Origin: Rickettsiales bacterium
Lineage (GTDB): Bacteria > Pseudomonadota > Alphaproteobacteria > Rs-D84
Reading direction: 5' to 3'
Assembly: GCA_031265235.1 (NCBI GenBank)
Contig: JAISCX010000013.1
Span: forward strand, 1-55,696
DNA length: 55,696 bases
Below are positions 2,761 to 49,075 of this stretch, one piece after another. Within the stretch, counting starts at the first letter, position 1. Every line of letters begins with the position of its first letter. A program made the position numbers and the translations under genes. The notes beneath the pieces are model-generated. The model ran no database searches, was not told the origin of the DNA, and saw only the letters and a list, made by a program, of their open reading frames with translations.

Positions 2761-3399
2761 ATGAAAAAACTTTTCGCAACAATAATCGCCGCCATATTTC
2801 TGGCCTTTGCCGCAGAGGCGAACGACTGCACGGTCGATGCGGTGGACGGAAAAAATTACGGCTGCAACGACAGTTGCGGCAACCCAGAGGTTCAAAGCGG
2901 ATTCTGGGTGTTCCGGACATACCCGAACATGTCTACATGCGTGACGCATTGGTGGAACGACTATTGGGACGATGAAGAAACCAGATATTGCGGCGGGTGG
3001 GACACCCGGTGTTCAAAGGCCGGCATGGAGCAAGACGCGGATTTGGGCGCGCGCTGTTGGAAATGTAAATGTCCCGCCGGACAATACTTTAAGGGAAACT
3101 CGGACGGCAGCGTGAATTTTGACGTATGCAAAGGTTGCAACGGGATTAGCGAAACCGTCCAGGGCAACATATGCTGGGATATCATATGCCCGAGCAAAAC
3201 GTCGGGCGATTTGACCTATGGCATGACTTTCGGCAAAGACGCGATAATTTGGAACGGCAAATGTCTGCCGGTGTGCGATTTGCAAACTGCGGGCGCGGTC
3301 TATAATAAAAGTGACAGCACATATATAAGCATTAAGTTCAAAACCGTTAATGCCGGAAAAATCGGTACTGGCGCGACGACGACGACCAGTTCCCAGTAA
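2761..3399 (+). CDS. Small secreted cysteine-rich protein (212 aa), co-oriented with the 811-aa gene
   Basis: AAGGAAG RBS, signal peptide IIAAIFLAFAAEA, many Cys including KCKCPAGQYF...CKGC, and a terminator-like hairpin downstream. Confidence 0.8.
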   Translation: MKKLFATIIAAIFLAFAAEANDCTVDAVDGKNYGCNDSCGNPEVQSGFWVFRTYPNMSTCVTHWWNDYWDDEETRYCGGWDTRCSKAGMEQDADLGARCWKCKCPAGQYFKGNSDGSVNFDVCKGCNGISETVQGNICWDIICPSKTSGDLTYGMTFGKDAIIWNGKCLPVCDLQTAGAVYNKSDSTYISIKFKTVNAGKIGTGATTTTSSQ

Positions 3400-3578: not shown

Positions 3579-4136
3579 ATGAAAAACAAAGTGGTTCTTT
3601 TTTACGGCGCGCCATCCAGCGGAAAGTTAACCATGGCAAAAATGCTTGCCGAACGGAATGGATTTAGGCTTGTGGACAATCATTTATTCCACGACATTGT
3701 TCAGCCGTTTATAAAAAAAGACGGCAGCGAGTTCCAAGAATATGTAGATTTAATTATTCCGTTACGCAAAGCGTTTTATGACATTGTGACACGTTTCTAT
3801 CCAAAGGATGAACCTGCTAATTATGTGTTTACGGTTTGGTTGGCAGATTTAAAAGAAGATATTGAAGAATATAATAAAATTAAAGACTTTGCGGCAAAAA
3901 TAAATGCCGAATTTTACCCGATAGAGCTGAATGCCGCCGAAGAAGTTTTATTATCCAGGGTCGAAGCCCCGGAACGCGCCGCACGCAGAAAAATTCATTC
4001 CAAGGAAAAGCTTAGTGAAATTCTAAAACAATATAAGTTGTTTTCATCCGACCATAAAAACAAGTTGGCAATCGATGTTGGCATGCAAAGTATAGAAGAG
4101 AGATACGAACTTGTTAAAAATCATTTAGAGTTGTAA
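3579..4136 (+). CDS. P-loop NTPase / small-molecule-kinase-like protein
   Basis: Walker A GAPSSGKLT near the N-terminus, 185 aa, locally lower GC. Confidence 0.8.
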   Translation: MKNKVVLFYGAPSSGKLTMAKMLAERNGFRLVDNHLFHDIVQPFIKKDGSEFQEYVDLIIPLRKAFYDIVTRFYPKDEPANYVFTVWLADLKEDIEEYNKIKDFAAKINAEFYPIELNAAEEVLLSRVEAPERAARRKIHSKEKLSEILKQYKLFSSDHKNKLAIDVGMQSIEERYELVKNHLEL

Positions 4137-4235: not shown

Positions 4236-6428
4236 CTATTTTTTTATCACCGGCGCGCCGGGATATCCCATCGCGGCGTGATGCGCGGGTATAAGAAATT
4301 CCGGCAATGGCGACGACTTTGGAATTTTCATAAGCTCTTTCATTTCGTCATCCGCGAACGCATACGGCGTGTCCGCCTCTATCGGTCTGTTCGCGAATCC
4401 CTGCATTATTATGATCTGTTTGTCTTTTTCCAATTTTAGAATATCCATCGGCGAATACAATGCGCCCTTGTTTTCCTTGTCCTCTTTCTCTTTGCCTTTG
4501 TCGTCTTTTGATACTTTGATCTCTATCTTTTCGCCCATCTGCTTGCTGAACTTTTCAGCGGTGTCCCAGTCGTTCTGGCGGAATACTATTTTCGCGGCCG
4601 TGGTTGACATGATTGTTTCCGCCGCGTCTTTGCCGTATTTTTCGCTGATCTGGTGAATGTTCTGGCCGATGATCAGATAAGACACTTTCTGTCCGCGGCC
4701 CAGATCCGGTCCCTGGATTACCGCCTGCATCTTTTGCATTTTCGGCATTTCGTCCAGAATAAACGCAACGGGAAACGGGCCCAGCTTTTGGTCGGCATGA
4801 ACTGCTTCCGGCAGATTTGACAGCAGGAATTGCGACATCAGTTCTATGAATATCGCGGTGATCGGATTCAAAGCGTCCGCATCCACCAGGTTTATCGAAA
4901 GATATACGCTGATCGGTTTCCACTTGCCGTCGGCCGAATCCTTGATTCCGCGCAGGTCGCTGAAATGAAAGTCCGAATGCGACGTCCGGTTTCGCACGGC
5001 CGCGTTGCGGAATATGGACAGCCCCGACATAACGGTGGAAAGGATGCTGCCGCGTTCCTTGTCCGGCGTGTTCGCCAATTGCGTCAATTCCAGAATAGAG
5101 CGGTGCGCGTATCCGTATTGGCGCGCCTCTTCAACAGCGGCCAGGAACAGTTCTTTCATGGAATCCGCCATCATAACCATCTGGTCGCCGGCCTTTCTGC
5201 GCGCTTCCAGGTCTTCGGTAATGCTTATCTGGCTGGTATTCAGCCAGTCCAAGATCATGGATAGCGACGCTTCCTTGCCGATCCATTGGGGCGGGATTTT
5301 CGCCCAGGTTCCGACATGGACATAATTCATCGCGGACATCTGGCCCATTTTTAATGTATGTCTGGCGGCTTCGGCGTTCGTGTCAAGCATGCTGGCATAG
5401 TAAGTATCCAACAGCGCCGCGTCCTCCCCGTCGAATTCGCCGGAATCCAGCCGCGACTTGAAATAATCATCGGCCTTGGCGCGTTCTATCTTTGAAACGA
5501 TGAATTGGACAAGTCCGGACAGCGCCGCGCGTCCGGAAATCGTCCAGTGCGGGTCGGCCGTGCTTGACGCCTTGTCCGCGATCAGAATCGTGCAGATGGA
5601 ATCGATATACAGATCGCGCTTTTCTTGTAGAAACGGCACATGTTCCGGCGACAGCGGATTCCAGGACGGATAATAAACCCCGCGCGACGGGTCGTCCTGG
5701 CCCGCCCAGTTTATGATGAATACCGGTCCGATCTTTGCGCGGTATCCGGACGTATATCCGTCCAGTTCAGGCTTTGGATCGTTTATGATCATAGACACGC
5801 CGTCGCACTTGAATATGGTCGGCAGAACGACGCCCATGGTCTTTCCGGTTCCGGGGGGCGCCACGCAAAGAACCGACAGGGTTTCGTCCAGCATCAGAAA
5901 TTTCTTTTTGAATTTGCCCAGAACGATTATGAATCCCTTGAACAGACCGCCGAACCGGCCCATCAGCGGGATGTCGCGCTCTATGGCTTTGCGGGATGAT
6001 TTCTCGTCGTATCTGTATTTTCCGTGCGGATTGAATTCTTTTAGAAAGTCTTCGTTGACAATAAGATTATATATTATGATCGGAATAAGCGGCATGATTG
6101 CCGGAATATCCGGGCGCATTACGGTCCGCGTCAGCCATGCGGGAATTTCCGCAAGCATGGCGATGCCCCCCGTCCAGACCAGCTGGTTGAAATAAGCAGA
6201 CAGCCATTTAAACGTTGCGGGCGAAAAGCCGTATCGCCATATATGTTCAATCGCAAACGACAGACCGAACGCCAGAACGGTCAAAATCCATATGCCGAAT
6301 ATCCAGCGAAGCCGCCAGAACAATATTTCAAGCGTCAGCCTTTCATGGTCTTTCGTATACGCGGACGTCTTGAATATCTCAAGCCCCTTGCCTTTGCCGC
6401 CTGCTGATAAAAGCTTGAATTTTGCCAT
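4236..6428 (-). CDS. virD4: Type IV secretion coupling protein, VirD4/TraG family
   Basis: N-terminal TM helices, Walker A APPGTGKT, Walker B FILDEMPKM, 730 aa, typical T4CP layout. Confidence 0.85.
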   Translation of the reverse strand: MAKFKLLSAGGKGKGLEIFKTSAYTKDHERLTLEILFWRLRWIFGIWILTVLAFGLSFAIEHIWRYGFSPATFKWLSAYFNQLVWTGGIAMLAEIPAWLTRTVMRPDIPAIMPLIPIIIYNLIVNEDFLKEFNPHGKYRYDEKSSRKAIERDIPLMGRFGGLFKGFIIVLGKFKKKFLMLDETLSVLCVAPPGTGKTMGVVLPTIFKCDGVSMIINDPKPELDGYTSGYRAKIGPVFIINWAGQDDPSRGVYYPSWNPLSPEHVPFLQEKRDLYIDSICTILIADKASSTADPHWTISGRAALSGLVQFIVSKIERAKADDYFKSRLDSGEFDGEDAALLDTYYASMLDTNAEAARHTLKMGQMSAMNYVHVGTWAKIPPQWIGKEASLSMILDWLNTSQISITEDLEARRKAGDQMVMMADSMKELFLAAVEEARQYGYAHRSILELTQLANTPDKERGSILSTVMSGLSIFRNAAVRNRTSHSDFHFSDLRGIKDSADGKWKPISVYLSINLVDADALNPITAIFIELMSQFLLSNLPEAVHADQKLGPFPVAFILDEMPKMQKMQAVIQGPDLGRGQKVSYLIIGQNIHQISEKYGKDAAETIMSTTAAKIVFRQNDWDTAEKFSKQMGEKIEIKVSKDDKGKEKEDKENKGALYSPMDILKLEKDKQIIIMQGFANRPIEADTPYAFADDEMKELMKIPKSSPLPEFLIPAHHAAMGYPGAPVIKK

Positions 6429-12176: not shown

Positions 12177-12259
12177 GATTGGATTATATGCCAGGTATCT
12201 TCAAAAGACAAGTGCAAATAATCATTTGCCCGTATAGGTTTTTATTATATAATCCCTGT

Positions 12260-13516
12260 ATGAAAAAATTTCCGGTTTATGTCCTTTGCCCTGTGATCTT
12301 TCTTTCCGCGTGTTCCACCATGGGGAATCGGCTGGATGCTGCGCGCGATGGTTTCGCGTCAGGCGATTATTCAAACAAAAAAATCGGCGATGATAATCTG
12401 GATCCGCTTCTTGCCGGAAACGCATTGTTCCAGCAAAACAAATTCAAAGAATCGGACGCCGCGTTCGAAGACATAAACAAACGGATGTCTGACGCCCAAA
12501 GCGCGTCGGTCGCGGGCGAGGTCGGCAAAGCATTAAGCAGCCAGATGGCGGGCAATTACAAGCCGTTCTTTATGGACGACCTGTTCGTGTCTTATTATCA
12601 AATTTGGGATGCGCTGGCGGACGGACGTGATAAAGACGCGCGGGTGATAGTCAACCAGTCATATGCAAAGCAACAGAAATTGTCCAAAGAATTCGCGTCA
12701 TTGATATCAAGACGCGAAACCGGCGGCAATGGTCTGGGCGCGAAGCTGCGGTCTGAAAATTCGGGATGGGAATCGTATCGCGATATAATGAATCCGGCGC
12801 TGACGTATCTGTCCGGATTGTATTTCTTGAACTTTGCCGCCGGGGCAAGCGATTTTGAAACAGCGCGGACGTATCTGTCGCGGGCAAGCGGCATGATGCC
12901 GGATAATGATTACATAAAATCCGACCTGGCCGCTGCTGTGTCCGGTAAAAAGCCGGGCGGCATGGCATGGATATTTATTGAATCCGGGTTCGCGCCAAAG
13001 CTGGACGAACGGCGTATAGATTGGCCGGTCATCGGCGCAAACGGCGTGACAAGCGTATCCGTCGCCGTGTCGGAACCGGTAATGTTTGTTGATATGCCGA
13101 CCCCGGACGGCGCGAGGTTATTGGCCGACGTCGATGCGATGTTCATGACGGAATTCAAGGAATACAGTGTGAACGACGCATTGCGCGCACTGGCCGGCGT
13201 GGCGGCCAAGACCGCGGTTCAGGCGGTTGCGAATAACCAGCTGGGGCCATGGGGGGGATTTGGCGCGATGATATATTCGATCGCCAGCACCGGTGCAGAG
13301 ATCAGGACATGGGCGACGCTGCCGAAAAAAATATATCTGATGCGCATTGATAAAACGGCAAATAGCAAAGAGCGAACAGAAAATAATGAAGAATTGATTT
13401 TGTTAAAAATTAATGGTAACGTCGTATCTGAAATAAAGGTTCCGGTTACCGGCAATGACTTGATATACATCAGACTGCTGAATGGCAAAATTGAACCGAA
13501 AATTATAAGAATTTGA
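12260..13516 (+). CDS. Lipoprotein of unknown function (resembles the COG3014-type partners of LpoB-like lipoproteins)
   Basis: Start moved to MKKFPVYVLCPVIFLSAC (lipobox LSAC). The upstream track start lies in the sRNA promoter region. 418 aa. Confidence 0.8.
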   Translation: MKKFPVYVLCPVIFLSACSTMGNRLDAARDGFASGDYSNKKIGDDNLDPLLAGNALFQQNKFKESDAAFEDINKRMSDAQSASVAGEVGKALSSQMAGNYKPFFMDDLFVSYYQIWDALADGRDKDARVIVNQSYAKQQKLSKEFASLISRRETGGNGLGAKLRSENSGWESYRDIMNPALTYLSGLYFLNFAAGASDFETARTYLSRASGMMPDNDYIKSDLAAAVSGKKPGGMAWIFIESGFAPKLDERRIDWPVIGANGVTSVSVAVSEPVMFVDMPTPDGARLLADVDAMFMTEFKEYSVNDALRALAGVAAKTAVQAVANNQLGPWGGFGAMIYSIASTGAEIRTWATLPKKIYLMRIDKTANSKERTENNEELILLKINGNVVSEIKVPVTGNDLIYIRLLNGKIEPKIIRI

Positions 13517-19531: not shown

Positions 19532-19645
19532 GCGCAAACAGTTCGGATTGCAGGGCCAGCTATATTTATTCTATCAAAAACTGCTTGCACTAATACTTGC
19601 GCTTGCCCCCTTTTTATGATAAAATTATCAGAAGAAATCCATATC

Positions 19646-22600
19646 ATGGAGATGAGAATGTTCAATGTGTTTAAAAAAATCAATGTGTTTGCTCTTAGTT
19701 CTTTGCTAGTGGCTCTTTGCGCGCAAAGCGCACAGACGGCGTCGCCGATACAAACCAGCGGACTGGTTACGAATACGTCGCTGACAGGGCGGCCCGCCTT
19801 GGCCCCCGCATACAGCGTGGCCGGCGTGAATACAATCGGCGGACGTATGCCGACGCTGCGCACGACGTCTGGAACCGGAATATCTACAACCACCACCGGC
19901 GCCGTTTCCGTCACAGACAAAGAATGCATAGATTCTTATCTTGAATGCGCGAAACAGCCGGATGTCTGCGGCCCCAACTTTGAAGACTGCACCAATAATT
20001 CTCTGTTCTTTGCAAAAAAATCCAACTGCACGTCTATTCTTTTGACCTGTCCGGCGAACGGGATAAGCCAGCTGTTCGGCACGACCAGCACATCCGTGCT
20101 TGCCACCAAGAGCACCACCGACAAGGACGAGAACGGCGAATACGTGTATATCTATCCGAACGAGAATTCCATCCTTGGCACAATGATCGTCGGCGCCAGC
20201 ATTACCCAGCGTCTGAATACCCAAGACTGTGTCCGGAAATATACCCAGTGCTTGAAAAAAGACGATGTTTGCGGCGCGGATTTCGAACTTTGCACATCCG
20301 ATACCGAATTTAGAAAACAAAAAGTATTCTGCCAGTCCACGTTGGCGCGCTGCCAGCTGGAAGGCAAGGTGGATCTGTGGGGAACGACGAACGTGACTGC
20401 AAACCCGCAGAATCCTGGCCGGCTGCGCGATATGATTGACGAAGGCGCGGCGTTGGCCGCGGTGAATGCCGTAGCTACTTGTTACAAAGTGGCGGACAAC
20501 TGCATACTGCAAGCGTGCGCGAAGAATCCGTATCTGTGCAAGGAAGGCACAGACCCGAAACTGTATTGCACGGCCGGCGAAGTCGTTGACCCAGACGACG
20601 TGGCAAGGGGTTGCTCTGACTTGTCCGGCATCGCATTCACGGGCGCAATCAACCGGAATGAAATTCTCGGCCGCGTCAAGAATGCGTGCTTTGATACCAT
20701 CGGCGGAAACAAATACTGCTATTCCACGGTCCGGGGCAACATGCCGACAGCGGCGCAGCTGAAAGACGAAGACAATAAGGACGACGTGTTTTCAGACATG
20801 TATTCGTCGCGCTTTAATACTGGAATGAAGACCAAGGTTGACGACCTGATTGAAAAGTTCAAGACAAAGCAGATGCAGAAATGCCGCGATGCGATTGTTG
20901 GCTGCGCGATGCGTTCGTGCGGCGAAGGCGTGGGTTCCGTATGCTATGCGGGCGCATACAACACAACTACTAAAACAATCGATGTGACCCAGGTCAAGCC
21001 GAAAGGCGAGATCCAGGCCGGATGCGCGACGATTATAAACAGCGACGCGTCATGCAAATATGCGACCGCGACGTTTGACGATGCCACTGCCGTGCTGGGT
21101 TACGAAGAAAGCGGCGGCATATTCGGAAAGCTGTTCACAAGTCCCACGGATGAAGATGGTTCGCGCGATCCTGTCGGCGCGGTTGCCGCATTGAACGCAC
21201 GGTTGGCGAATTCATACAGCACTGCCGCGCTTGCCGCTATGCAGAAACAGTGCCAGGGCATCGCGCAAAGTTGCGTCAAATCCATGTGCGGCGGCGAATA
21301 TGAAAATTGTTACCGCAATCGGACGGACGTTTATTCCGCACTGACCAACACCAGCAAGACCGCGTTTGATAAAAGCATGAACAAGGTTGGCGGCGTGCTG
21401 GATCACACCATCATAATCGGCCTTTGCATCAATACGGTCAAGAACAACCCGATATGTGAAGAGCATATAAAGGTAGAATCCGCGAAGATAGCGAACGGTA
21501 CCATCACGACCGACTCGGTATGGGGCGACGCAACATCTGCCCGCGAAGGGTGGCTGGGCGCCGGAGTGTTTAGCATAACTTCCGAAAATTCCGTCCAGGA
21601 TACCGATGCGGACGGCAACCTGTTGTGTTGCGCAGCGCTTGCGGATAGTACCGCATGTACGTCGTTTGGGCGCTGTGATGATGCGGGCGGCCTGTTCGTG
21701 ACGCCGAAAATGATAGAAATCGGCGATTATCAGGTTCAAAAGGTCACAGAAGGCATATTCGCAAATCTGATATACGATCTGGAAGTAGAGGCCCAGGCGA
21801 AATACAATGCCAAGATAACGGCCCAGATGAACATGTGCCACGCGGAAAACAGCGGCGGCGTCATGGGCGCCAGCGACATGAATTCCACTTTCCAGTGGGC
21901 AAAGCTGAAATCCAAGAATGTGCCGGCGGACTATTCGGTCAAGGGTCTGCCCGACAGTGCGGTCCAGGCATCGAATGACCTGTATGGTTCGTTCTGCCGC
22001 GTTCGCGTGGAAATACGTTCAAACGACGCGATGATCAAAAAAGCCATAGAGGAAAACGGCAAGACGTGGACGCGCACGAACTTTGCAATCGGCGACGCAT
22101 TCACATGCGGTTCATGGATTCCGCAGAAAGATCTGGAAGAGATATCCCAGCTTGTATATAACAATAAATATGAAGCAGAGACTAAGAACGATGGCAGAAC
22201 GCGCGGATGGATGACGGCGCTGGGTTCTGTGCTGGGCGCGGTCGGCGGCGGCGTTGGAGTGAACGCGTTGCAGAAAAGCAGCTTTGGCGGCCTGATTAAT
22301 ACGAATAAGCAGGGCGGCGCAGAAGCGCTTCGGGCGGAAAGCTGCAAGAATAAGTTCCAGAATGCGATAAAAAGCCTGACAGGTCAGAATTATGCAACCC
22401 AGAGTGAAATGGTAAATGGCGCAGATGGTACATTTGTCGGATGGACTTATAAAGCTTATTCTCTGACGCCGGCACAAACAGCTGGACTTGCAGCGGCACA
22501 AGATCAGGCAGCATATCTGTCGGCGCTAAACGTTGTCACGGCTTCGTCTGCAATATCTACTATGACGACCTATGCGGAAAGCGAACAATGCGGGAAATTC

Positions 22601-22861
22601 AATGGCGGCAATGGCAATAGTCTTTGGACCGATGGACGTGGCAAGACGCTGGCGACTATTGGTGGCGCTGTGATTGGCGCGGTCGGCGGCGGATTCTTGG
22701 CGAATGCGATAACAAAGGATGTCCAGGAATCATCCGCGGAAAAGGCTGCGAACGAGGCAAAGACGGAATGGTTCAACAGTATCGGCAGCAAAATATTGTG
22801 CTATATAGGTTCCGAAGAAGTTGGCGTTTACGGCGATATACGTTCGACAAGCATGGAATGA
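19646..22861 (+). CDS. Giant secreted cysteine-rich repeat protein with C-terminal glycine-zipper segments
   Basis: Signal peptide VFALSSLLVALCAQSAQT and about 40 Cys in the same modules as 287..2722. Glycine-zipper segments LGSVLGAVGGGVGV and IGGAVIGAVGGGFLA near the C-terminus. Start ambiguous (19616/19646/19652/19658). Confidence 0.85.
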   Translation: MEMRMFNVFKKINVFALSSLLVALCAQSAQTASPIQTSGLVTNTSLTGRPALAPAYSVAGVNTIGGRMPTLRTTSGTGISTTTTGAVSVTDKECIDSYLECAKQPDVCGPNFEDCTNNSLFFAKKSNCTSILLTCPANGISQLFGTTSTSVLATKSTTDKDENGEYVYIYPNENSILGTMIVGASITQRLNTQDCVRKYTQCLKKDDVCGADFELCTSDTEFRKQKVFCQSTLARCQLEGKVDLWGTTNVTANPQNPGRLRDMIDEGAALAAVNAVATCYKVADNCILQACAKNPYLCKEGTDPKLYCTAGEVVDPDDVARGCSDLSGIAFTGAINRNEILGRVKNACFDTIGGNKYCYSTVRGNMPTAAQLKDEDNKDDVFSDMYSSRFNTGMKTKVDDLIEKFKTKQMQKCRDAIVGCAMRSCGEGVGSVCYAGAYNTTTKTIDVTQVKPKGEIQAGCATIINSDASCKYATATFDDATAVLGYEESGGIFGKLFTSPTDEDGSRDPVGAVAALNARLANSYSTAALAAMQKQCQGIAQSCVKSMCGGEYENCYRNRTDVYSALTNTSKTAFDKSMNKVGGVLDHTIIIGLCINTVKNNPICEEHIKVESAKIANGTITTDSVWGDATSAREGWLGAGVFSITSENSVQDTDADGNLLCCAALADSTACTSFGRCDDAGGLFVTPKMIEIGDYQVQKVTEGIFANLIYDLEVEAQAKYNAKITAQMNMCHAENSGGVMGASDMNSTFQWAKLKSKNVPADYSVKGLPDSAVQASNDLYGSFCRVRVEIRSNDAMIKKAIEENGKTWTRTNFAIGDAFTCGSWIPQKDLEEISQLVYNNKYEAETKNDGRTRGWMTALGSVLGAVGGGVGVNALQKSSFGGLINTNKQGGAEALRAESCKNKFQNAIKSLTGQNYATQSEMVNGADGTFVGWTYKAYSLTPAQTAGLAAAQDQAAYLSALNVVTASSAISTMTTYAESEQCGKFNGGNGNSLWTDGRGKTLATIGGAVIGAVGGGFLANAITKDVQESSAEKAANEAKTEWFNSIGSKILCYIGSEEVGVYGDIRSTSME

Positions 22862-25121: not shown

Positions 25122-26339
25122 TTATTCGTGCCGCAGGCTGTCGATCGGATTCAGCTTTGCCGCCTTGTTCGCCGGGAATACCCCCGACGCTATGCCGACC
25201 ACGACCGCCACCGCGATGGACAGCACGACGGACCACATGCTTAGCGGCACGCTCATATCCATGACCTTTGGCAGAATGGTTTGCGATATGATCAGTCCCA
25301 GGATAAATCCGATCATCGACCCAATGAAAGAGATCAGTATCGATTCCGACAGGAATTGCGTCGTAATATGTTTTTCCTTGGCGCCTATGGCCTTGCGGAT
25401 TCCGATTTCGCGCGTGCGTTCCGCAACGCTTACAAGCATCATGTTCATAATGCCGATGGAACCCACAAGCAATGACACGCTTGCGATCGCCATCAGCAGC
25501 ATTTTTAAAAATCCCGTGATGGTGTTCATGGTTTCCATTACCTGCTTCATATCCATGATTTGAAAATCGTCCACATCTGCGTCTTTTAATTTATGCCGGT
25601 CGCGAAGCAGCGCCGTGATCTGTTCCGTCACCAGCGTGTTGTCCGCATCCTGGTAAAGCTTTACTGTGACGGTCTGCACGGCGTCCGGAAAACGTCCGCC
25701 TTGGATGCGTTTTTTAAGCGTCGTGAACGGTATTATGATCATGTCGTCCTGGCTGCCCATCATGCTGTCGCCGCGTTCCTTGGTTACGCCGATCACGACG
25801 AACGGCATGTTTTGGACGCGTATAACCTGGCCGATGGGGTCAAGCGGCAGGTCCAGTTCCGTCGCCGTCTTTGGGCCGATCACCGCGAAAGTGGATCCGT
25901 TTCTGATGGCGGACGTGTCAAAGAACGTCCCCGATTCCATTTCTATGTTTTGCACGGCCGCGTAATCCGGATATGTGCCGATAAGCGATGTGCCCCAGTT
26001 TCTGTTGCCGAAAACCGCCTGGGCGGATGCGTTCTGGACGGGCGCCGCTGCGGAAACGTCGGGCAGTCTGGCGATCGCCTGGGCGTCCTGGGTTGTCAGG
26101 GTCATGCGCATTCCGGTGCGCACGCCGGATGTCTGGGCCGCGCCGGCGCGGACGATTATGGTGTTGGTGCCAAGGGATGAAAACTGGTCGGTAATCTGCT
26201 TTTGCACGGCGTCGCCGACAGACATCATGACCACGACCGCCATAACGCCGATGATGATGCCAAGGACGGTCAGAAAGCTGCGCACCTTGTTGCCAGATAT
26301 GGATAGCCAGGATTCTTTCAAGATATCGTTAAAAGTCAT
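25122..26339 (-). CDS. MacB/FtsX-type ABC transporter permease
   Basis: N-terminal TM helix, large periplasmic domain, C-terminal FtsX helices, RTREIGIRKAIGA motif. Confidence 0.9.
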   Translation of the reverse strand: MTFNDILKESWLSISGNKVRSFLTVLGIIIGVMAVVVMMSVGDAVQKQITDQFSSLGTNTIIVRAGAAQTSGVRTGMRMTLTTQDAQAIARLPDVSAAAPVQNASAQAVFGNRNWGTSLIGTYPDYAAVQNIEMESGTFFDTSAIRNGSTFAVIGPKTATELDLPLDPIGQVIRVQNMPFVVIGVTKERGDSMMGSQDDMIIIPFTTLKKRIQGGRFPDAVQTVTVKLYQDADNTLVTEQITALLRDRHKLKDADVDDFQIMDMKQVMETMNTITGFLKMLLMAIASVSLLVGSIGIMNMMLVSVAERTREIGIRKAIGAKEKHITTQFLSESILISFIGSMIGFILGLIISQTILPKVMDMSVPLSMWSVVLSIAVAVVVGIASGVFPANKAAKLNPIDSLRHE

Positions 26340-27072
26340 GTATTCCCTTTCCGTAATTATTTAACACTGCGAAGATAAAGTCGTCTTCGGTCACTGTTTT
26401 CCGGGGCGCATATTTGACGGCCGTATTTGAATCCAATGGATTGGATACGCCTTTTTTACATGAAACAAATTGTATCAGTTTTTCATATTGTTCCGCGGTC
26501 AGACGCATTAATCCAAGCTTTATTCCGGATAAATTCTCGAAAGTCTTTCTATATTTGTCCGCGACAAAGTCGCCGAACTTCAGCTTGCCATAATTTAATA
26601 TGAAATGCCGTATGTTTTCAGGCGGATAACCGTATCCGGCGCCGCGGATAAAATGCAACGCCGACAAGGCGTCCCCGGTTTCCGGCATATTCCTTAATTT
26701 GTAATTGTCATTCATTACCTTTGCGGCGTATTGCTGTATCCGTTTCCTGGCATCGGATTTTTTATTATCCAGATCGCTTGCAAGATCACGGTCTATATTT
26801 AAAAATTTATGCGAAACTTTTTCTATATTCTCTATCTGTTGCGCCGGAAAGGCGCGCAGCCATAATTCGTCGGTCGCAAGAATGAATTTTGCGGGATCGT
26901 CAGGCAGCTTGTATTCGTGAAAAAACTTTTCGGGATAATTGAATCCATTTGCGACAAGGTCTTCATCGAATTTCTTTGCGTCCGATGAATACCCCGCGTT
27001 TCCGATGAGAGTATCGCGGAATATTTCGGACAGTTCGTCAAAAGTTTTTATTTCGATGGTATCGGTCATCAT
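26329..27072 (-). CDS. Hypothetical cytoplasmic protein wedged between the ABC ATPase and permease genes
   Basis: Its ATG overlaps the ATPase stop by 4 nt and its stop overlaps the permease start by 11 nt. It is visibly AT-richer than its neighbours and has no TM helix or recognisable motif. Confidence 0.7.
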   Translation of the reverse strand: MMTDTIEIKTFDELSEIFRDTLIGNAGYSSDAKKFDEDLVANGFNYPEKFFHEYKLPDDPAKFILATDELWLRAFPAQQIENIEKVSHKFLNIDRDLASDLDNKKSDARKRIQQYAAKVMNDNYKLRNMPETGDALSALHFIRGAGYGYPPENIRHFILNYGKLKFGDFVADKYRKTFENLSGIKLGLMRLTAEQYEKLIQFVSCKKGVSNPLDSNTAVKYAPRKTVTEDDFIFAVLNNYGKGIHDF

Positions 27073-36245: not shown

Positions 36246-37222
36246 AGTATCTCCTTTAACTCTCTCATATCATCCGGCAGACGCGCCTTGAATTTTAGCG
36301 TTTCGCCGGTCACGGGATGGTTTAGTTCCAAGACCTCTGCGTGCAGCATCTGGCCGGAATGCGTCTTTATAAATTCCAGCAACAGCGGATTCCGGACGCT
36401 TCCCAGCCGCGTATTTCCGCGCCCGTAAAGCGGATCGCATAAAACAGGGAATCCGTGCGCGGACAAGTGCACGCGGATCTGGTGCGTGCGCCCGGTCCAC
36501 AATGTGCACCGCAATTCGGATACATTGCTGCGCGGCCATGCGTTTATTACGGTCGCTTGTGTTCTGGCCTCTCTGCCCCCTATTTTAAGCAGCGTCATTT
36601 TCTGACGATTTTTTGTGCTGCGCCCGATGTTTCCGGTTATGTCCGCATCTATCCAATTGGGCACCCCCCATACGAACGCGATATATTTTCTGATTAAATC
36701 ATGATTGGCAAATGTTTTTACAAGCGCGCGGAACGCCATGTCGGATTTTGCAAAAATAACGACGCCGGATGTGTCTTTGTCCAGCCGGTGCACGACGCCG
36801 GGCCGGACATCGCCGCCAAGCGTGGACAGACGGGTATGCGCGCACACCCCCTGGACCAGGGTTCCGGTTCCCCGCCCGGCGCCGGGATACATGGCGATCC
36901 CGCGGGGTTTGTTTATAACGATAATGTCTTCGTCTTCGAATAGAATGTCCAGCGGCATTTTGTCATGAGACGCGGATGGCAAAACGCAAGTAGTATTTTT
37001 TTCCGGAATTTCCACCGCGTATTCTTCGTCCGATTTTACTTTATCGGACAGTTTTATTTTTCTTGCTTCTTGCCTTGAATCTCGGATAACGAATTTCTGA
37101 ATTTCGCTGCGGGATAGATCCGGCATTTTTGTGGATAAAAATTTATCCAGCCGCGTCCCCGCGTCTTCTTTCGATACTATAAAAGTTTTAATTTTATCAT
37201 TCATCAGCCGTTCATTTTGCAT
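36239..37222 (-). CDS. RluA/RluD-family pseudouridine synthase
   Basis: S4-like N-terminus (GTRLDKFLS) and catalytic HRLDKDTSGVVIFAKS. Start placed at M13 to avoid overlapping the upstream ORF. Confidence 0.88.
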   Translation of the reverse strand: MQNERLMNDKIKTFIVSKEDAGTRLDKFLSTKMPDLSRSEIQKFVIRDSRQEARKIKLSDKVKSDEEYAVEIPEKNTTCVLPSASHDKMPLDILFEDEDIIVINKPRGIAMYPGAGRGTGTLVQGVCAHTRLSTLGGDVRPGVVHRLDKDTSGVVIFAKSDMAFRALVKTFANHDLIRKYIAFVWGVPNWIDADITGNIGRSTKNRQKMTLLKIGGREARTQATVINAWPRSNVSELRCTLWTGRTHQIRVHLSAHGFPVLCDPLYGRGNTRLGSVRNPLLLEFIKTHSGQMLHAEVLELNHPVTGETLKFKARLPDDMRELKEILS

Positions 37223-37700
37223 AGTCTTTCCATTCCGGCCCCTGCGTGCAGTTTTCAAGATGCACTTGTATTGTGCCGCCGGCTGCGGCTGTTTCGCAGA
37301 CCAGTATCCCCGCAGTCCGTCCCTGGTTGGCGTTTTTTGACACTTCGCGCCATGCGAACTGCATTGTTTTCGGCACCGCCAGACAGGTTATGCGCCCGCG
37401 CGCCGCGTTGCTGTCATCCCATTCGAAATTCATGGCGGGCGACACCCAAAGCCGTCCGCTTTCCGTCTGTCCATAGCACGGGAATGCGTCCAGAAAATAA
37501 AGCTCTATCCCGATGTTTGTAACCGTTCTGTCGCGGCCGAATTTTATTTGATATTCCCGCAGGCGCAGCCCTGTTACGGCTTCCCAGTCTATGCTGGTTG
37601 AAAAAATGGCCGGACGCGCTATCGGATCCGCCGCCAGCGCGGGCACGCCGATATGGCACAAAAGCGCGGATATTGATAAAATAGATAAATATGTTTTCAT
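37212..37700 (-). CDS. Secreted hypothetical protein (162 aa)
   Basis: Signal peptide LSISALLCHIGVPALA, no recognisable motif, co-oriented with the pilin-like genes. Confidence 0.6.
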   Translation of the reverse strand: MKTYLSILSISALLCHIGVPALAADPIARPAIFSTSIDWEAVTGLRLREYQIKFGRDRTVTNIGIELYFLDAFPCYGQTESGRLWVSPAMNFEWDDSNAARGRITCLAVPKTMQFAWREVSKNANQGRTAGILVCETAAAGGTIQVHLENCTQGPEWKDYAK

Positions 37701-37717: not shown

Positions 37718-38227
37718 TTAACTGTCGGCTTTTTCAAATTCTATCCCAAATTTTCTGGCTTCCGGGACAGATTCGGCAATCGTGTGCTTGAACTCTACCG
37801 ATTCGCCCGCATCCAAAAGCGGCGCCGGCGGCAGAAATTTCTGGACGGCGATGGTATCGCCGTCCTTGTTCTTCATCGCAATTACAAAGTTGGGGATGCC
37901 TTGAATCTTGTCGGTACGGTTTGAAATCCGCCCGCTGACAACCCAATGGCCCAGACCGTTTGCGTCCGAAATCTGACGCACCGGTTCAAGCTTGACGGTC
38001 AACGGGGCGTTTCGGGAAATGTTGCCGGCATGGTGCTTTAAAACGATGGTCGCAGAAAATATGGCGGCCGCCAGCAATGCGCATATGCTGGCGAATATCA
38101 ATAGAAAAGAACCGCCGTTTTTCTTGGGCGGGGTCCATACTTTGCCGCAGCACGCGCATTTGACCGCGCGCGCATTCGGCAAATTCGCCGCGTATTCGGC
38201 ATTGCAAACAGGACATATTATTTTCAT
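37718..38227 (-). CDS. MJ0042-type zinc-ribbon membrane protein with DUF3426-like C-terminal domain
   Basis: CPVC..(17)..CACC ribbon, one TM helix, then a beta-rich domain. Confidence 0.8.
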   Translation of the reverse strand: MKIICPVCNAEYAANLPNARAVKCACCGKVWTPPKKNGGSFLLIFASICALLAAAIFSATIVLKHHAGNISRNAPLTVKLEPVRQISDANGLGHWVVSGRISNRTDKIQGIPNFVIAMKNKDGDTIAVQKFLPPAPLLDAGESVEFKHTIAESVPEARKFGIEFEKADS

Positions 38228-38333: not shown

Positions 38334-39692
38334 CTATTCCAAGTTCAGCTGATTGTATTTCATGCGGACGCGCGTTTCCATGTCCGACAGGGCGTTCATA
38401 AAATCGGACACGGTCGCGTTCGTATTTGCCGCGACGGCGGACATTATTTTTTCGGATTCTGTTTTTTTTACGGACGACTCGTTCTTGACCGCGGAAACCA
38501 TCATCCCCGAAAGCGAAGGAAAGGACATATCCTGCATTACCGCGACGCTATCAGCAAGGTCCCAATACAGATCGGCGTTTGCGGAATCTTCGATGCGGTC
38601 GCGCACGGACAGACGCGGCGTCACCGAACCCGCGAATCCGACGCTGACGAACAGCGCGGATATGCGCCCGCCGGTCATGTCCAAAGTTTGATTGACGGAA
38701 AGTGTCGCAAGCTTTCCGTCCGCAGGCAGCGATATTCCGGATAACGACAAATCCCCGGCCCACATCTCTCTGGCGTTCACGCCGGCAAACCGCGCGGTTT
38801 GACTGACCGTTATTTTGTCGGCTTTCAAAGCCCTGGAATCGGACGACAGCGCGCCATTCACGATCGTATCCCCGGATACTGTTATTTTCCCATCCAGCGT
38901 CGGTCTGTTTTCAATCGCTGCGCGGTCGGCCGATATGTTGTCCGTGTTCATGAATTCCGAAAAGTTTGCCGTTTCCGCCGCCAAAGTCCGCGCGTTTACA
39001 ATATTGTGCCCGCCAAGCGACAAATCGCTTGCCATTGTTGCGTCAAGCGCGTTGTCCGTCGCCACCCTTTTTATAAATTCATCCCCTGCGCGCGACACCG
39101 GCGTCATATCCAGCACGGCATTGTTTGAAAAATTGGCGTTCCATATATGGACGTTCTGCGTCCAGGTGCCGAATGCGCCGTATGCCTTTAATCCTTCGGC
39201 AAAGCCTGCGGCTTCGCCCGATAATTCCGCCACTTCGCGTGTGCGCAGCGCCGACATGTCGCTGTTTTCCATGATTACGATGCCTTGCAGAAACGACCGT
39301 CCGGCGCGGTCAGCGGTCTTTATAACGCGCAGCTGATATTTTTCGGATTTGTTTATCGCGTCAATGCCCAGCCCATATTCGGCAAGATCCGAAATGGATA
39401 CGCGCTTGACATTTCTGGTGATCGTCGCGGTCATCGCCGCTTTCTTGTCTTCGATGTATCGTTCCAGCGCGGATTTTACCAACGCCATGTCGCGTGCGAT
39501 TCTGATGTTTTCCGCGCGGCGGACCCGGGCCGTTTCCGTCCGCAGTAAAAACGGCAGCATGGCGGCCGCCAGCGAAAGCGCCAGCAAAAATTCCACCATC
39601 ATGCCGCCATGCTGCGCACGCGCCGCGCCGCGGCGAGAGAAGACGGAAAAGGAAAGAGAGAAGAAAGATTTATTCAATCGGTGCCCCCGCAA
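38334..39692 (-). CDS. Large prepilin-like protein C
   Basis: N-terminus ..AQHG|GMMVEFLLALSLAAAMLPF, repeat-rich C-terminal half. The TTG start at 39692 overlaps gene B by 23 nt; the alternative ATG at 39602 would leave no leader. Confidence 0.7.
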   Translation of the reverse strand: MRGHRLNKSFFSLSFSVFSRRGAARAQHGGMMVEFLLALSLAAAMLPFLLRTETARVRRAENIRIARDMALVKSALERYIEDKKAAMTATITRNVKRVSISDLAEYGLGIDAINKSEKYQLRVIKTADRAGRSFLQGIVIMENSDMSALRTREVAELSGEAAGFAEGLKAYGAFGTWTQNVHIWNANFSNNAVLDMTPVSRAGDEFIKRVATDNALDATMASDLSLGGHNIVNARTLAAETANFSEFMNTDNISADRAAIENRPTLDGKITVSGDTIVNGALSSDSRALKADKITVSQTARFAGVNAREMWAGDLSLSGISLPADGKLATLSVNQTLDMTGGRISALFVSVGFAGSVTPRLSVRDRIEDSANADLYWDLADSVAVMQDMSFPSLSGMMVSAVKNESSVKKTESEKIMSAVAANTNATVSDFMNALSDMETRVRMKYNQLNLE

Positions 39693-40995
39693 TTTTGGTT
39701 TTCAGGCTTTTCCATCCGCTGCCCAGAATCTTGTTGTATTCCGTTTCGTTAATCGCTGTCTTGTTTAAAACATCCCCCCCGGATTTTTTCAAGACCAGTG
39801 CGGAAAATCTTGGGTTTGAAGACGACGGGAAACTCCAATTGCCAAGTTTCAAGGGGCCGGAAGAATATCCGCCGGCCAGTTCGCTGGATATGGTGATACC
39901 GAAACCGTTTGCAAAATGCATTTGATCCGCAGAGATGAACGGCACGGACGCGGAATATGCCGAAATTACGGAAAACCCGGATACCGTCCGCGCGGACGTT
40001 GTCCGCAGGGTCAGGTTCCGGCCCACATGCACCGCGTCCGCGATGCTGGCCCTGTCTGCGATCATGTTACCCTGCGACGACCAGTTTGACGAAATGCCCG
40101 CGCCTTCAAACCTGTTCGTTTCAATATTGCGGAACCCGAGAACATCGCCGGAAACTTTTAAATAATTGAACATCGCATCGGACGGGTCAATGTTCGCGCC
40201 GTTTGGAAAAACAGCATCAGCTGCGTCAAAGATATCCGCGTTCGCAAACCATGCGGCCGCCATTTTTGAATCAAGGGACAACGAATGCAGCGCATCTATG
40301 TCAACAAGATTGCGTCGGCCCATGTTCAAGTCGCGTTCCATCGTGTTCAGCCTGTCGTCGTCCAGCTTCATCCTGTGCAGATAAAGACCCGCGGCATCGT
40401 CGGATATTGTGGTCGACACGCGGTATACGATGTCGTGTTGAAGAAAGCTTTCCGATTCGATGCTGAATCCGCCGGCGACGGAATATGCGACGCCGAACTC
40501 GTTCACGATGGCGGCGTCGGTTCCCAGATTTTTTGCGATTTTCGCGATGCGGATTTCCGACATCGTGCCCCCGCGGAATATCAGGTAAGAATCGATCGTC
40601 GTGCCTGCCTTGTGCTTGTATTTATCAAGAAACGCGGCATATGGAATCAAATTTCCCTTTCCTTCTTCCCCAAGTATTTTATACATTTCATCCTGATCAA
40701 GATCCACCTCGGCGTCTTGCGGCCAGTCGGCCTGGTTTTTTCGCACGTATCCAGCGATTCTGTCTTTCCATAAAACAATTTCCTTGGCGGCCGTTATGTC
40801 TTGTATCTCGCGGCTTGTTTCCGCAATACGGTTGTAAACAAAAGGCGTCATCAAAGCGACAAGGCCGATGGCGAGAAGCGTTTCCAATAGATTGCTGCCA
40901 CGTTCGCAGTGGGAACGGGATACTGGATACGCGCAAAAAAATGCAACGAACTTTCGCATCTTGTCCCTCGCATTTCGTCTTTCGTATTTCAGCAT
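39670..40995 (-). CDS. Large prepilin-like protein B
   Basis: ATG at 40995 overlaps the gene A stop (ATGCTGA), with a purine-rich RBS. N-terminus ..CERG|SNLLETLLAIGLVALMTPF. Confidence 0.75.
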   Translation of the reverse strand: MLKYERRNARDKMRKFVAFFCAYPVSRSHCERGSNLLETLLAIGLVALMTPFVYNRIAETSREIQDITAAKEIVLWKDRIAGYVRKNQADWPQDAEVDLDQDEMYKILGEEGKGNLIPYAAFLDKYKHKAGTTIDSYLIFRGGTMSEIRIAKIAKNLGTDAAIVNEFGVAYSVAGGFSIESESFLQHDIVYRVSTTISDDAAGLYLHRMKLDDDRLNTMERDLNMGRRNLVDIDALHSLSLDSKMAAAWFANADIFDAADAVFPNGANIDPSDAMFNYLKVSGDVLGFRNIETNRFEGAGISSNWSSQGNMIADRASIADAVHVGRNLTLRTTSARTVSGFSVISAYSASVPFISADQMHFANGFGITISSELAGGYSSGPLKLGNWSFPSSSNPRFSALVLKKSGGDVLNKTAINETEYNKILGSGWKSLKTKIAGAPIE

Positions 40996-42452
40996 CCGCC
41001 CTTTCCTTCCAACATGCATTTTTTCAAATCTATCCTGCGTTCCAGTCTTTGCCAGAATACATACCGGCAAACGATGTTTTGCGATAATGATTTTTGATTG
41101 TATGCAACGCCGCCGGTCAGCGCGCCGATGATATTCCGGCACCCGGTCACCGCGCCGGAATCGTCGTCGATTTGTGATGGAATCCCGATCGCGTTGTTGT
41201 CTATGCCGTCAATGGTGATGTCCGGCAGAACGGACACCCCCCCAAGGCGCAAGTCGATCAAAACCGGTCCGGTGCCGCCATTTAAAAGACCGCTTGACGT
41301 CTGGTCGCGCAGCGTCAGATTTGCGGCAGAGACAACGTTCGCTTCTATCCCGCTTTTAGAGGCATAGGTCAAATCGTATTCGTTTATGAAAACATCCTGG
41401 CCGCGGCTGGCGTTTATAAATCCGCTGACTTCCAATTGTTCTGCATCCAGTGTCACGTTTTCCAATACGGCGTTGCCTTTGACTTCCCATTTGGCGGGGC
41501 CGTTGAATCCGGTTCTGCCGGCCGCCATTGAAAAGTCATATACGGACAGCGTGTCCGCGGTCAGATTTCCCGCGTCCCCGTATTTTGATATCGAAGACGA
41601 CGACAGGTTTCCCGCGTTTAAAATTCCCTTGGTGACGTTCATGGAATCGCCGAAAACGGCGCGCCGGATATTGAACGCCCCGAATCTGTTTCGCATTTTT
41701 TTCCCGTCTTCCATCCCGGATAATCTGATGTCGCCTGCAAGGATTGTTTTGAAATTCCCTTCGCGCGCAGAGATGTCGTTTATTCCCTTTATATCGTATC
41801 CCCCCATGATCAGGTCTGTATGGAACTTGTTGTCTTCTGTATTTTTCGATCTTTTTGCGACCAGTTCCGACAGTTCGCGAAATGCCGGAACGCGGACATA
41901 GATAGTGTTTTTGTCCGGACGCCAGCCGAATTCTTCGGTTCTTATTTCCCAACCGCCGGTGGCGCCGCGTAGGATTTTTTCATCCGCATCGAATTCTGCC
42001 GCCCAAAAGCCGATGCGGACGGCAAGTTCCGCCATGGCGGCGGCGCTTGTCTTTGGGTCGGATATGCCGATGAATGACAGCGTCTCGGATTCGCTTTTAA
42101 CGGTCGTCATAAAGATATTTTGCCCGAAAGGTGTCTTTGGAACAAACCCCAGCGAAAGCCCGTAAGATTCCAGCGCGTCCGTAAATTTGTCGTCTTTGAA
42201 TATTGCGACCCCGTATGGCATCCGGTCGGCATTGTCGCGGATGAATTCGCGCGCGGCGCCCGCCGCCGCTTCGATCTGGGCGGTTGTGGCCGCCATTCTG
42301 GATGCGAATTCATTGCCGGATATTTTGCGGACAAGAAAAGGCATGAACGCGATGACAAGTGCCAGCGCCAGCAAGGCTTGGAGCATGAAATTACCACGCT
42401 TGGCGCGCGCGTCGTGATAAGCGATGCGTGATAAGTGATACATGAGATGCAA
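40989..42452 (-). CDS. Large prepilin-like protein A
   Basis: AGGAGG lies 6 nt before the TTG at 42452 (first ATG at 42443). N-terminus ..AKRG|NFMLQALLALALVIAFMPF. Confidence 0.75.
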   Translation of the reverse strand: MHLMYHLSRIAYHDARAKRGNFMLQALLALALVIAFMPFLVRKISGNEFASRMAATTAQIEAAAGAAREFIRDNADRMPYGVAIFKDDKFTDALESYGLSLGFVPKTPFGQNIFMTTVKSESETLSFIGISDPKTSAAAMAELAVRIGFWAAEFDADEKILRGATGGWEIRTEEFGWRPDKNTIYVRVPAFRELSELVAKRSKNTEDNKFHTDLIMGGYDIKGINDISAREGNFKTILAGDIRLSGMEDGKKMRNRFGAFNIRRAVFGDSMNVTKGILNAGNLSSSSISKYGDAGNLTADTLSVYDFSMAAGRTGFNGPAKWEVKGNAVLENVTLDAEQLEVSGFINASRGQDVFINEYDLTYASKSGIEANVVSAANLTLRDQTSSGLLNGGTGPVLIDLRLGGVSVLPDITIDGIDNNAIGIPSQIDDDSGAVTGCRNIIGALTGGVAYNQKSLSQNIVCRYVFWQRLERRIDLKKCMLEGKGGC

Positions 42453-42604
42453 AACATCCCTCCTACGAGGAATAGGATAGCCGTTTAAAATTTTTATTGC
42501 AATTAGTTTTAAGATGGTTTATGTTTGGCTGGTTCAAGCTGATATGTGAACAAATAGATTCCATAGTTTTTTAGCTGTTAGTTTTATTTAAAGGAAGACT
42601 TCCT

Positions 42605-42895
42605 ATGCAATATAAGAGAAATCAAATGTCTGTCGGGCTGATGATTCAGCGGTGCCATCGCTGGCGCCAAAAGCGCAAAACGTATCTGGATCAGGCGCGC
42701 CAAACGCAGGACGAGATAGAGCGCGAGCGTCTGTTGCAGCTTGCCGAACATTACGGCCGCATTGTCAGCGACGAACAGGGAAAGATTGATACGACCCGCG
42801 GCCCCGGCAAAAACGACCAGGCGTCGGGCGTCGGGGATGATGAAAAAGAAGATGACGATGACGAATCGTTCCCGGATTTTTTAAAGCAATTGTAA
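42605..42895 (+). CDS. Small DUF4167-like protein with acidic tail
   Basis: ERLLQLAEHYGRIV resembles the AE.YLQHAEHY.R core of DUF4167. The tail is DDEKEDDDDE. Confidence 0.6.
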   Translation: MQYKRNQMSVGLMIQRCHRWRQKRKTYLDQARQTQDEIERERLLQLAEHYGRIVSDEQGKIDTTRGPGKNDQASGVGDDEKEDDDDESFPDFLKQL

Positions 42896-48430: not shown

Positions 48431-49075
48431 TTAATATTGTAATACTAAGTCAGGGGCAAATCTTTTATATAACCACGCAAACTCAATGAGCTGCCCTTCA
48501 TATATTTTCAATAATCTCTCTTCATTAAAATCAGACAACTGAGCATCCTGACCTTTTGTTATATCGGCATGTACACAGCACATATCAATAAAGGTTTGCA
48601 ACCAAAATGATTTTTGTCGAAGTTGTTTGTTTAGTGAATTTGCTAACTCTATTTCACTTTTAACTTTTGACCTTTTGTCCCAAATAGGTTTGAATTTTTT
48701 GTTCAATTCGTCTATTTCGTTTAATGCGTCAGCAATTATACTGATCATTTTTGTATATTCTATACTGGTCATGCGTTCCGCTGCAAAACGAACTTTGTCA
48801 TATGGCCATCCATATTGCAACCGTTGGGAATATTTTGGACTTTGCAACGATGTGCTATCTATCTTGTATTCAATTTTCTTGGCACAAGCATTTTGCTGTT
48901 CGCCAAACACAACCGTGTTTTCGAATTTCAAGCCGTCATCAACACAATAATCACCAAATATAATCGTTGGAAGTTCTTGATTATTTATCGTCATTATGTG
49001 CGTCTGCGCGCGTGACAACTTGGCTGTCAAAACTAAAATTGTTGCTAGCCCAAAAATTTTAACCCAGTATTGCAT
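48431..49075 (-). CDS. Secreted hypothetical protein in a low-GC islet
   Basis: Signal peptide IFGLATILVLTAKLSRA, 214 aa, strongly AT-rich codon usage compared with the flanking genes. Confidence 0.65.
   Translation of the reverse strand: MQYWVKIFGLATILVLTAKLSRAQTHIMTINNQELPTIIFGDYCVDDGLKFENTVVFGEQQNACAKKIEYKIDSTSLQSPKYSQRLQYGWPYDKVRFAAERMTSIEYTKMISIIADALNEIDELNKKFKPIWDKRSKVKSEIELANSLNKQLRQKSFWLQTFIDMCCVHADITKGQDAQLSDFNEERLLKIYEGQLIEFAWLYKRFAPDLVLQY

Follow-up and report, generated by a model that had tools for sequence, protein, structure and literature searches.

PilV is the minor pilin and tip adhesin of the type IVb thin pilus of IncI1/R64 plasmids and Salmonella Typhi. In R64 it binds the lipopolysaccharide of the recipient cell, and it is encoded in the pil operon of a conjugative element by one gene with switchable C-termini. 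CofB of the CFA/III pilus of enterotoxigenic Escherichia coli and TcpB of the Vibrio cholerae toxin-coregulated pilus are homotrimers of one gene product, and the trimer both primes assembly and caps the pilus. A third arrangement is found in GspI-GspJ-GspK of type II secretion and in PilV-W-X/FimU of type IVa pili, where several minor pilins are co-encoded and translationally coupled; GspK, a large member which lacks Glu at position +5, is the top-most type II secretion pseudopilin. Contig JAISCX010000013.1 of a Rickettsiales bacterium (Rs-D84), which was analysed over its entire 55.7 kb and is referred to as the window, carries three consecutive genes, A, B and C. As judged by profile comparison, their products are distant members of the PilV superfamily, that is type IVb minor pilins, which lie below the thresholds of curated hidden Markov models (HMMs). 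The three genes and the region upstream of them are as follows.

40989..42452, minus strand: gene A, PilV-like large pilin of 484-487 amino acids (aa), leader ending in ...AKRG, predicted mature N-terminus NFMLQALLALALVIAFMPF
39670..40995, minus strand: gene B, PilV-like large pilin of 441 aa, predicted mature N-terminus SNLLETLLAIGLVALMTPF
38334..39692, minus strand: gene C, PilV-like large pilin of 452 aa, predicted mature N-terminus GMMVEFLLALSLAAAMLPF
42453..42604, no strand: AT-rich divergent intergenic region upstream of gene A, containing an AGGAGG ribosome-binding site

A first-pass annotation of this DNA had described three minus-strand open reading frames (ORFs) at these coordinates, with overlaps indicative of translational coupling, and an ORF check confirms both. 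Gene A can start at TTG 42452 (487 aa), which is preceded at a distance of 6 nucleotides (nt) by AGGAGG, or at ATG 42443 (484 aa), as in the database gene call. Its stop codon overlaps the start of gene B (ATG 40995) in the sequence ATGCTGA at 40989..40995, and gene C overlaps gene B by 23 nt with a start at TTG 39692 (452 aa) or by 8 nt with a start at TTG 39677 (447 aa). There is no convincing terminator inside the A-B-C run, and its GC content equals that of the flanks. The intergenic region 42453..42604 is presumed, from consensus-level evidence, to be the promoter region of the operon; the sole sigma-70-like site near gene A (42636..42609, minus strand) begins within the divergent DUF4167-like gene. 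The description of A, B and C as prepilin-like paralogs within one tightly coupled operon is supported.

All three proteins begin with a short, positively charged leader with Gly at position -1, which is the design of class III leaders. The leaders end in KRG (A), ERG (B) and QHG (C), with the Gly-1 codons at 42395..42393, 40899..40897 and 39608..39606, and the residue at +5 is Gln in A and Glu in B and C. When all six frames of the window were scanned for G-x4-[EQ] with an uncharged hydrophobic stretch behind it, A, B and C alone were returned. N-terminal positions were also tabulated over about 80 orthologues per family, extracted from 82 related loci (1.6 Mb in total, in stretches of 20 kb or less). 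Every located orthologue of the three families has Gly-1, with the proviso that the locating pattern itself demanded Gly and [E/D/Q]; the A sequences which it missed read by eye as G-[NS]-F-x-x-Q. Position +5 is Gln in 71 of 71 pattern-matched A proteins and Glu in 80 of 81 B and 75 of 79 C proteins, Pro+18 is conserved at 97-100% across the families, Phe+19 is nearly invariant in all three, and positions -3/-2 of the leader are mostly [Gln/Glu]-[Arg/Ser/His]. The scan and the orthologue table thus bear out the shared basic leader ending in Gly, [EQ]+5 and Pro+18 that had been noticed in the window proteins. Since the leader is conserved at the protein level, initiation at the Met residues that come shortly after the Gly is ruled out. 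A-like proteins of three distant lineages (L086, L088 and L089) carry Glu at +5, unlike the Gln of Rs-D84 A.

Pairwise BLASTP detects only weak similarity among A, B and C (22-24% identity, E about 1e-4). Profile-profile comparison of the orthologue alignments with hhalign shows the three to be anciently diverged paralogs, with probabilities of 99.1% for A/B (E 6.5e-19, 258 columns), 99.4% for A/C (E 1.6e-21, 278 columns) and 99.5% for B/C (E 2.6e-22, 270 columns). The homology covers the first 200-280 residues or so and includes the internal motif which the first-pass annotation had reported (FHTDLIMGG in A, MERDLNMG in B and MASDLSLGG in C), as this is aligned in all three comparisons. The C-terminal halves are mutually unalignable. 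They had been described as Gly/Asn/Ser/Val-rich repeats resembling beta-helix strands, and the compositional part of that claim holds, with a G/N/S/V/T content of 40% compared to 26-31% in the N-terminal halves. Internal repeats are rejected, as BLAST self-comparison found none, and the beta-rich middle of A is predicted at a low local distance difference test score (pLDDT about 40-70), which does not bear out a beta-helix.

The three proteins had initially been assigned to no recognisable family, and their length, three to four times that of ordinary pilins, had been regarded as an oddity. Searches with the TadE, Tad_N and N_methyl HMMs, which had been proposed as a check, give no match to the window proteins at E<=1. 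Among 130 orthologues TadE-like (PF07811) and Tad_N (PF13400) have no match at E<=0.01, and N_methyl (PF07963/TIGR02532) gives sub-threshold matches to two of 45 B and one of 45 C orthologues. The family that does emerge is PilV. Shufflon_N (PF04917) is matched in Pfam by five of 40 A and three of 45 B orthologues, and among 466 database homologues of A one bears PF04917 and several are named by NCBI as 'shufflon system plasmid conjugative transfer pilus tip adhesin PilV'. For direct comparison, an E. coli plasmid supplied a genuine 435-aa IncI PilV together with its pil operon. Residues 54-232 of A align to residues 43-236 of this protein (hhalign probability 96.6%, E 5.4e-10), and at the end of the alignment the motif region of PilV lies against NKFHTDLIMGGYDIKGINDISAREGNF of A. 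The homology takes in the NKxHTxxDMGxxxxxNxG motif, which is the DL.MGG motif of the first reading. B and C align to PilV in the same register, at 80% (E 1.3e-5) and 32% (E 4.8e-4) probability, respectively. In a search of 5.8 billion proteins the sole non-orthologous match of the B profile is a 487-aa protein (P0330) with N_methyl and Shufflon_N domains, which sits in a PilS - T2SSE ATPase - PilV - SLT - PilM operon and is a bona fide PilV. The C profile matches the solved N-domain of a Geobacter PilA-N pilin (9egp, E 6.7e-4, residues 3-64); HMM searches of PDB sequences with the A and B profiles returned nothing relevant.

The likeness to PilV extends to size (430-490 aa), to a prepilin-type leader ending in Arg-Gly with Glu at +5, to the homologous N-terminal 200 residues or so with the N-x-M-H-T-x-x-D-M-G-x-x-x-x-x-N-x-G motif, and to a Gly/Asn/Ser-rich C-terminal half. 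As PilV of the R64 type is itself about 435 aa long, the size of A, B and C is normal. There are also differences. Where PilV has a single gene whose C-termini are switchable, the trio comprises three fixed paralogs, which are chromosomal and lie among housekeeping genes instead of in the pil operon of a conjugative element; the trio has an invariant Pro+18/Phe+19, and A has Gln at +5. A shufflon was considered and rejected, since the locus has no clustered inverted repeats: only scattered chance repeats of 14-26 nt are present at the trio, and no Rci or other recombinase gene is nearby.

The structure of A alone was predicted with AlphaFold2. A first model from 40 sequences (pLDDT 64.7) had no meaningful Foldseek match, and the final run with 120 sequences reached a mean pLDDT of 75.8. 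In this model residues 19-71 form a single continuous helix of 53 residues, followed by an alpha/beta head (78-184), with helix and head both above pLDDT 90, by a beta-rich region of low confidence (190-410) and by a confident C-terminal domain (410-484) which contains four conserved Cys, two of them invariant and two nearly so. The extended N-terminal pilin helix that a structure prediction had been expected to reveal is hence present in the model of A. The top Foldseek match is full-length TcpA, the major pilin of the V. cholerae type IVb pilus (8uhf_B, probability 0.90, E 0.049, target TM-score 0.44), and a second TcpA entry stands further down the list. This weak match of a predicted fold agrees in direction with the sequence evidence.

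A is reminiscent of CofB and TcpB in its order of pilin domain, beta-rich region and C-terminal domain, and its predicted pilin domain comes closest to TcpA, which is the major pilin in this class of pili. A tip of three subunits is likewise proposed here for the trio, which would form a heterotrimer from three paralogs in contrast to the single-gene homotrimers of CofB and TcpB; searches by sequence and by fold returned neither of them. GspI-J-K and PilV-W-X/FimU resemble the trio in that several minor pilins are co-encoded and translationally coupled, in that one large member (GspK, as A) lacks Glu+5, and in that such operons often lie apart from the genes for the ATPase and the secretin. 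They differ in that their Pfam families have no sequence similarity to the trio, every subunit of which exceeds 400 aa and is a paralog of the other two.

The ordered trio is widespread. When each GTDB species was represented by one genome, relatives of A turned up in 260 species genomes. All of these are metagenome-assembled genomes (MAGs) from the guts of termites, ruminants, rodents, birds and humans, with the label Alphaproteobacteria, 'Rickettsiales' or Candidatus Enterousia. These 260 genomes, which belong mostly to the order Rs-D84, carry A-B-C in order, as do more distant alphaproteobacterial MAGs of low GC content (29-37%), so that the survey for a conserved triplet which had been suggested gave a positive answer. 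Orthologues of the trio are 35-68% identical. In the 82 related loci A and B are matched in all and C in 81, and the complete block of DUF4167-like gene (divergent), A, B, C, D, E and RluD is present in 76, wherever the contig reaches far enough; the outer flanks consist of housekeeping genes and differ between loci. A profile search of 1.84 billion representative sequences gave 197 matches, 52 of them at E<=1e-30, with a tail of 400-1070-aa proteins that match over the N-terminal 200 positions or so only. Several relatives of about 950-1070 aa form a giant branch of the PilV-like family; one of 968 aa (L087:10001-12907) in a 'Proteobacteria bacterium' MAG has a pilin-type N-terminus, KG|SMMVEALAMLGLITMVTPI, and a PilV-like N-terminal region, and adjoins the flagellar genes FliL and FliM. 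The trio loci of the distant lineages are as follows.

L086: trio of 487-423-544 aa, then RecO
L089/L090: trio of 494-493-484 aa, then RecO
L088: trio of 435-495-521 aa, with a D-like gene and RluD 3 kb off
L085: two genes only, of 463-435 aa, with D-like and E-like genes and RluD 5.5 kb upstream and VirB9/VirB10 0.5 kb downstream

For the L086 and L089 genes, taken in order, the best-scoring profiles are those of A, B and C, and the same ordered trio in such distant lineages indicates that it is much older than Rs-D84. The Rs-D84 order, which includes Enterousia, has genomes of 0.67-1.6 Mb, most of them below 1 Mb, with minimal metabolism (PMC12306168). The nearest relatives of the window organism are MAGs from termite gut, which would place it in this group. 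Retention of an intact A-B-C in 260 species and in the distant lineages, even in genomes of this reported size, argues for strong purifying selection. The same data speak to the notion that the trio is the decaying, functionless remnant of an integrated IncI-like conjugative element, which could be derived from the plasmid-borne nature of PilV, the nearest known family, and from a coupling-protein gene in the window. Intact, ordered and overlapping ORFs at 35-68% identity in highly reduced genomes, a GC content equal to that of the flanks and a neighbourhood free of integrase, shufflon repeats and other pil or tra genes make this extremely improbable, and the conservation effectively refutes it.

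The same motif scan which finds A, B and C detects a further pilin in relatives. In 59 of the 82 loci a small ORF of 150-155 aa (153 aa; for example L046:7418-7879, minus strand) lies on the strand opposite to A, about 2 kb upstream of it, flanked by dnaX and a gene for an OmpA-like lipoprotein. Its leader and mature start read MxxESG|RSLIExIGVLAI, with an invariant Glu+5, and the protein has two invariant Cys. It matches N_methyl and PilS, the major pilin family of IncI and S. Typhi, just below threshold; hhalign gives E 0.15 with R64 PilS, which is not significant, and a co-linear but weak alignment with another PilS (E 0.004). Some copies are named by NCBI as 'type II secretion system (GspH family) protein'. 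This small PilS-like protein is a candidate for the major subunit of the same filament.

The first-pass annotation considered a dedicated surface fibre or adhesin plausible, and such a role is supported as the best reading of the trio. In the form in which it appears somewhat better than an even chance, A, B and C are substrates of a prepilin peptidase and form a heteromeric complex that primes a type IVb-like filament and sits at its tip, with their three different C-terminal domains as adhesins. Each protein would be inserted in the inner membrane by its hydrophobic N-terminal helix, and a prepilin peptidase would cleave it behind the invariant Gly; the enzyme was not found at the loci examined and would be encoded elsewhere. 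The three would then join through their N-terminal helices into the priming and tip complex, beneath which the small PilS-like pilin, seen 2 kb upstream in relatives and not on this contig, may be polymerised. The divergent C-terminal halves, stabilised by Cys, would be displayed at the filament tip as adhesins for the surface of a partner or host. Tip adhesins fit the partner-dependent way of life proposed for Rs-D84, namely that of an obligate symbiont or parasite (PMC12306168). By analogy to GspK, A could be the top-most subunit, with no subunit above it to pair with; its Gln+5 in Rs-D84 and its position as the first gene are as expected for such a subunit.

Several results weigh against this filament-tip interpretation. 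The window proteins match no Pfam or NCBIfam model at E<=1, pilin models included, the likeness of A to TcpA is weak (E 0.049), and its Foldseek search returned neither CofB nor TcpB. The small pilin is absent from the window contig and from the loci of the closest relatives; in the window the genes upstream of the trio are LptF/G, LptD and SurA instead. Pfam searches of the sizeable window ORFs detect no T2SSE ATPase, T2SSF platform protein, secretin or Peptidase_A24. In the window and the 82 loci, tblastn with IncI PilL-PilU and pattern scans for the A24 GxGDxK motif and for the Walker A and Asp box of T2SSE find nothing, and pilus machinery is likewise not found on the contigs of five more distant lineages. 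The published survey of Rs-D84 genomes mentions type IV pilus genes for another lineage only (PMC12306168). The window does lack such machinery, as had been pointed out at the outset; the weight given to this was overstated, the window being one 55.7-kb contig from a lineage with reported genomes of 0.67-1.6 Mb and a candidate major pilin being encoded 2 kb upstream in relatives. Operons of minor pilins are commonly unlinked from the assembly machinery.

A further possibility, which is rather unlikely, is that the trio builds a short periplasmic pseudopilus or envelope-spanning complex similar to the GspH-I-J-K tip, possibly serving or coupled to a type IV secretion system. Three minor-pilin-like subunits of which one lacks Glu+5, the GspH-family name given to the small pilin, the location of the A-like and B-like genes of L085 at 0.5 kb from VirB9 (CagX) and VirB10 (TrbI), and a VirD4-type coupling protein encoded in the window at 4236..6428 would all agree with this. 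The proteins match no Pfam family of type II secretion pseudopilins, however, and their sequence affinity is to PilV, an external tip adhesin. The link to type IV secretion is confined to one lineage, the flanks elsewhere being RecO, RluD or LptF/G, and the tblastn and motif scans of the window and the 82 loci did not find GspD, GspE or GspF.

The neighbours of the trio in the window are as follows.

37718..38227, minus strand: gene D, 169-aa bitopic ZitP-like protein with a CxxC-x15-CxxC zinc ribbon, a transmembrane helix and a periplasmic DUF3426-like domain
37212..37700, minus strand: gene E, 162-aa protein with a Sec signal peptide and four invariant Cys, of no known family, always after D
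42605..42895, plus strand: DUF4167-like gene of 96 aa, divergent from A

The four Cys of D are invariant among its orthologues, of which 41 of 44 match Zn_ribbon_4 and 19 of 44 match DUF3426 (best E 1.5e-6); the window protein itself scores 20.8 and 18.5 bits, under the Pfam cut-offs. D is likened to ZitP of Caulobacter crescentus by architecture, as both have an N-terminal CxxC...CxxC zinc ribbon, one transmembrane helix and a periplasmic DUF3426 domain; ZitP is longer (311 aa compared to 169 aa), and in D the domains are recognised at sub-threshold Pfam scores. The DUF3426 domain of Caulobacter ZitP is required for the biogenesis of the Tad/Cpa pilus (PMC5182063). The product of gene E is predicted to be Sec-exported, with about 130 aa remaining. 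Neither the D nor the E family has similarity to any IncI PilI-PilV protein. A functional link of D and E to A-C is no more than suggested; their status as firm members of the module is weakened by the distant lineages, where D, E and RluD stay together 3-5.5 kb away from the trio. The DUF4167-like gene (45-86% identity) keeps its position in 80 of 82 related loci, is not beside the trio in the distant lineages and is probably context only.

D also enters into an alternative in which the pilin-like N-termini are uncleaved signal-anchors. On this view A, B and C would be bitopic proteins of the inner membrane that have periplasmic domains and work without type IV filament machinery, and D might organise them at a cell pole. 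This would account for the absence of machinery at every locus examined and for a zinc-ribbon/DUF3426 protein as the conserved neighbour in Rs-D84, and type IV pilus genes are not reported for Rs-D84 (PMC12306168). An invariant Gly-1 in a conserved [QE]-[RSH]-G leader and a buried Glu+5 that has been retained over a very long span of evolution are hard to explain by a mere anchor, a separate small classical pilin of the same leader design co-occurs with the trio, and the D-E-RluD linkage is separable from it, all of which renders uncleaved anchors a fairly improbable account.

Other loci of the window are also of note. The VirD4/TraG-type type IV secretion coupling protein (4236..6428, minus strand; PF02534, E 1e-51) is accompanied by three plus-strand ORFs at 287..2722, 2761..3399 and 3579..4136, the first two of 811 and 212 aa without a Pfam match and the third a small P-loop NTPase-like ORF. 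A Cys-rich protein of 1081 aa (19616..22861, plus strand), whose N-terminus looks by eye like a signal sequence and which has no Pfam match, is 47% identical to a 1011-aa protein of another Rs-D84 genome (L001:15925-18960), where the gene lies directly downstream of RluD and hence beside the A-E cluster; it may be a lineage-specific surface protein. Sizeable ORFs without a Pfam match are also found in housekeeping surroundings at 12179..13516 (plus strand), 26329..27072 (minus strand) and 48431..49075 (minus strand); the one of 247 aa among them lies within a MacAB-TolC-like efflux operon.

PilV-like minor pilins are already known as a kind of protein, and automatic annotation hints at their presence here. 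What is new is a fixed and ordered trio of paralogs, chromosomal and without a shufflon, which very small alphaproteobacterial genomes retain as a core operon and which is unlinked to an assembly machine at the loci examined. The guts of animals, humans and termites are widely colonised by Rs-D84 and other uncultured Alphaproteobacteria related to it. A dependence on partner cells has been proposed for Rs-D84, and the means of attachment is a gap that the trio could fill. To spend about 4 kb on three large PilV-like pilins in such small genomes, with their order kept, points to a central contact structure. It is an unlikely prospect that these genomes are devoid of any type IV filament machinery, and that the trio and the small pilin form a pilin-derived envelope or contact apparatus which either assembles by another route or is used by the type IV secretion system, and through which the cell attaches obligately to a partner; a true lack of the machinery would make this a new use of pilin proteins. 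Should A, B and C instead assemble into a heterotrimeric tip, the PilV adhesin with its shufflon switch would have a natural 'fixed' counterpart and the CofB/TcpB homotrimer an asymmetric version, and such a tip would provide a handle on the receptor of the partner or host and on the enrichment or culture of these organisms.

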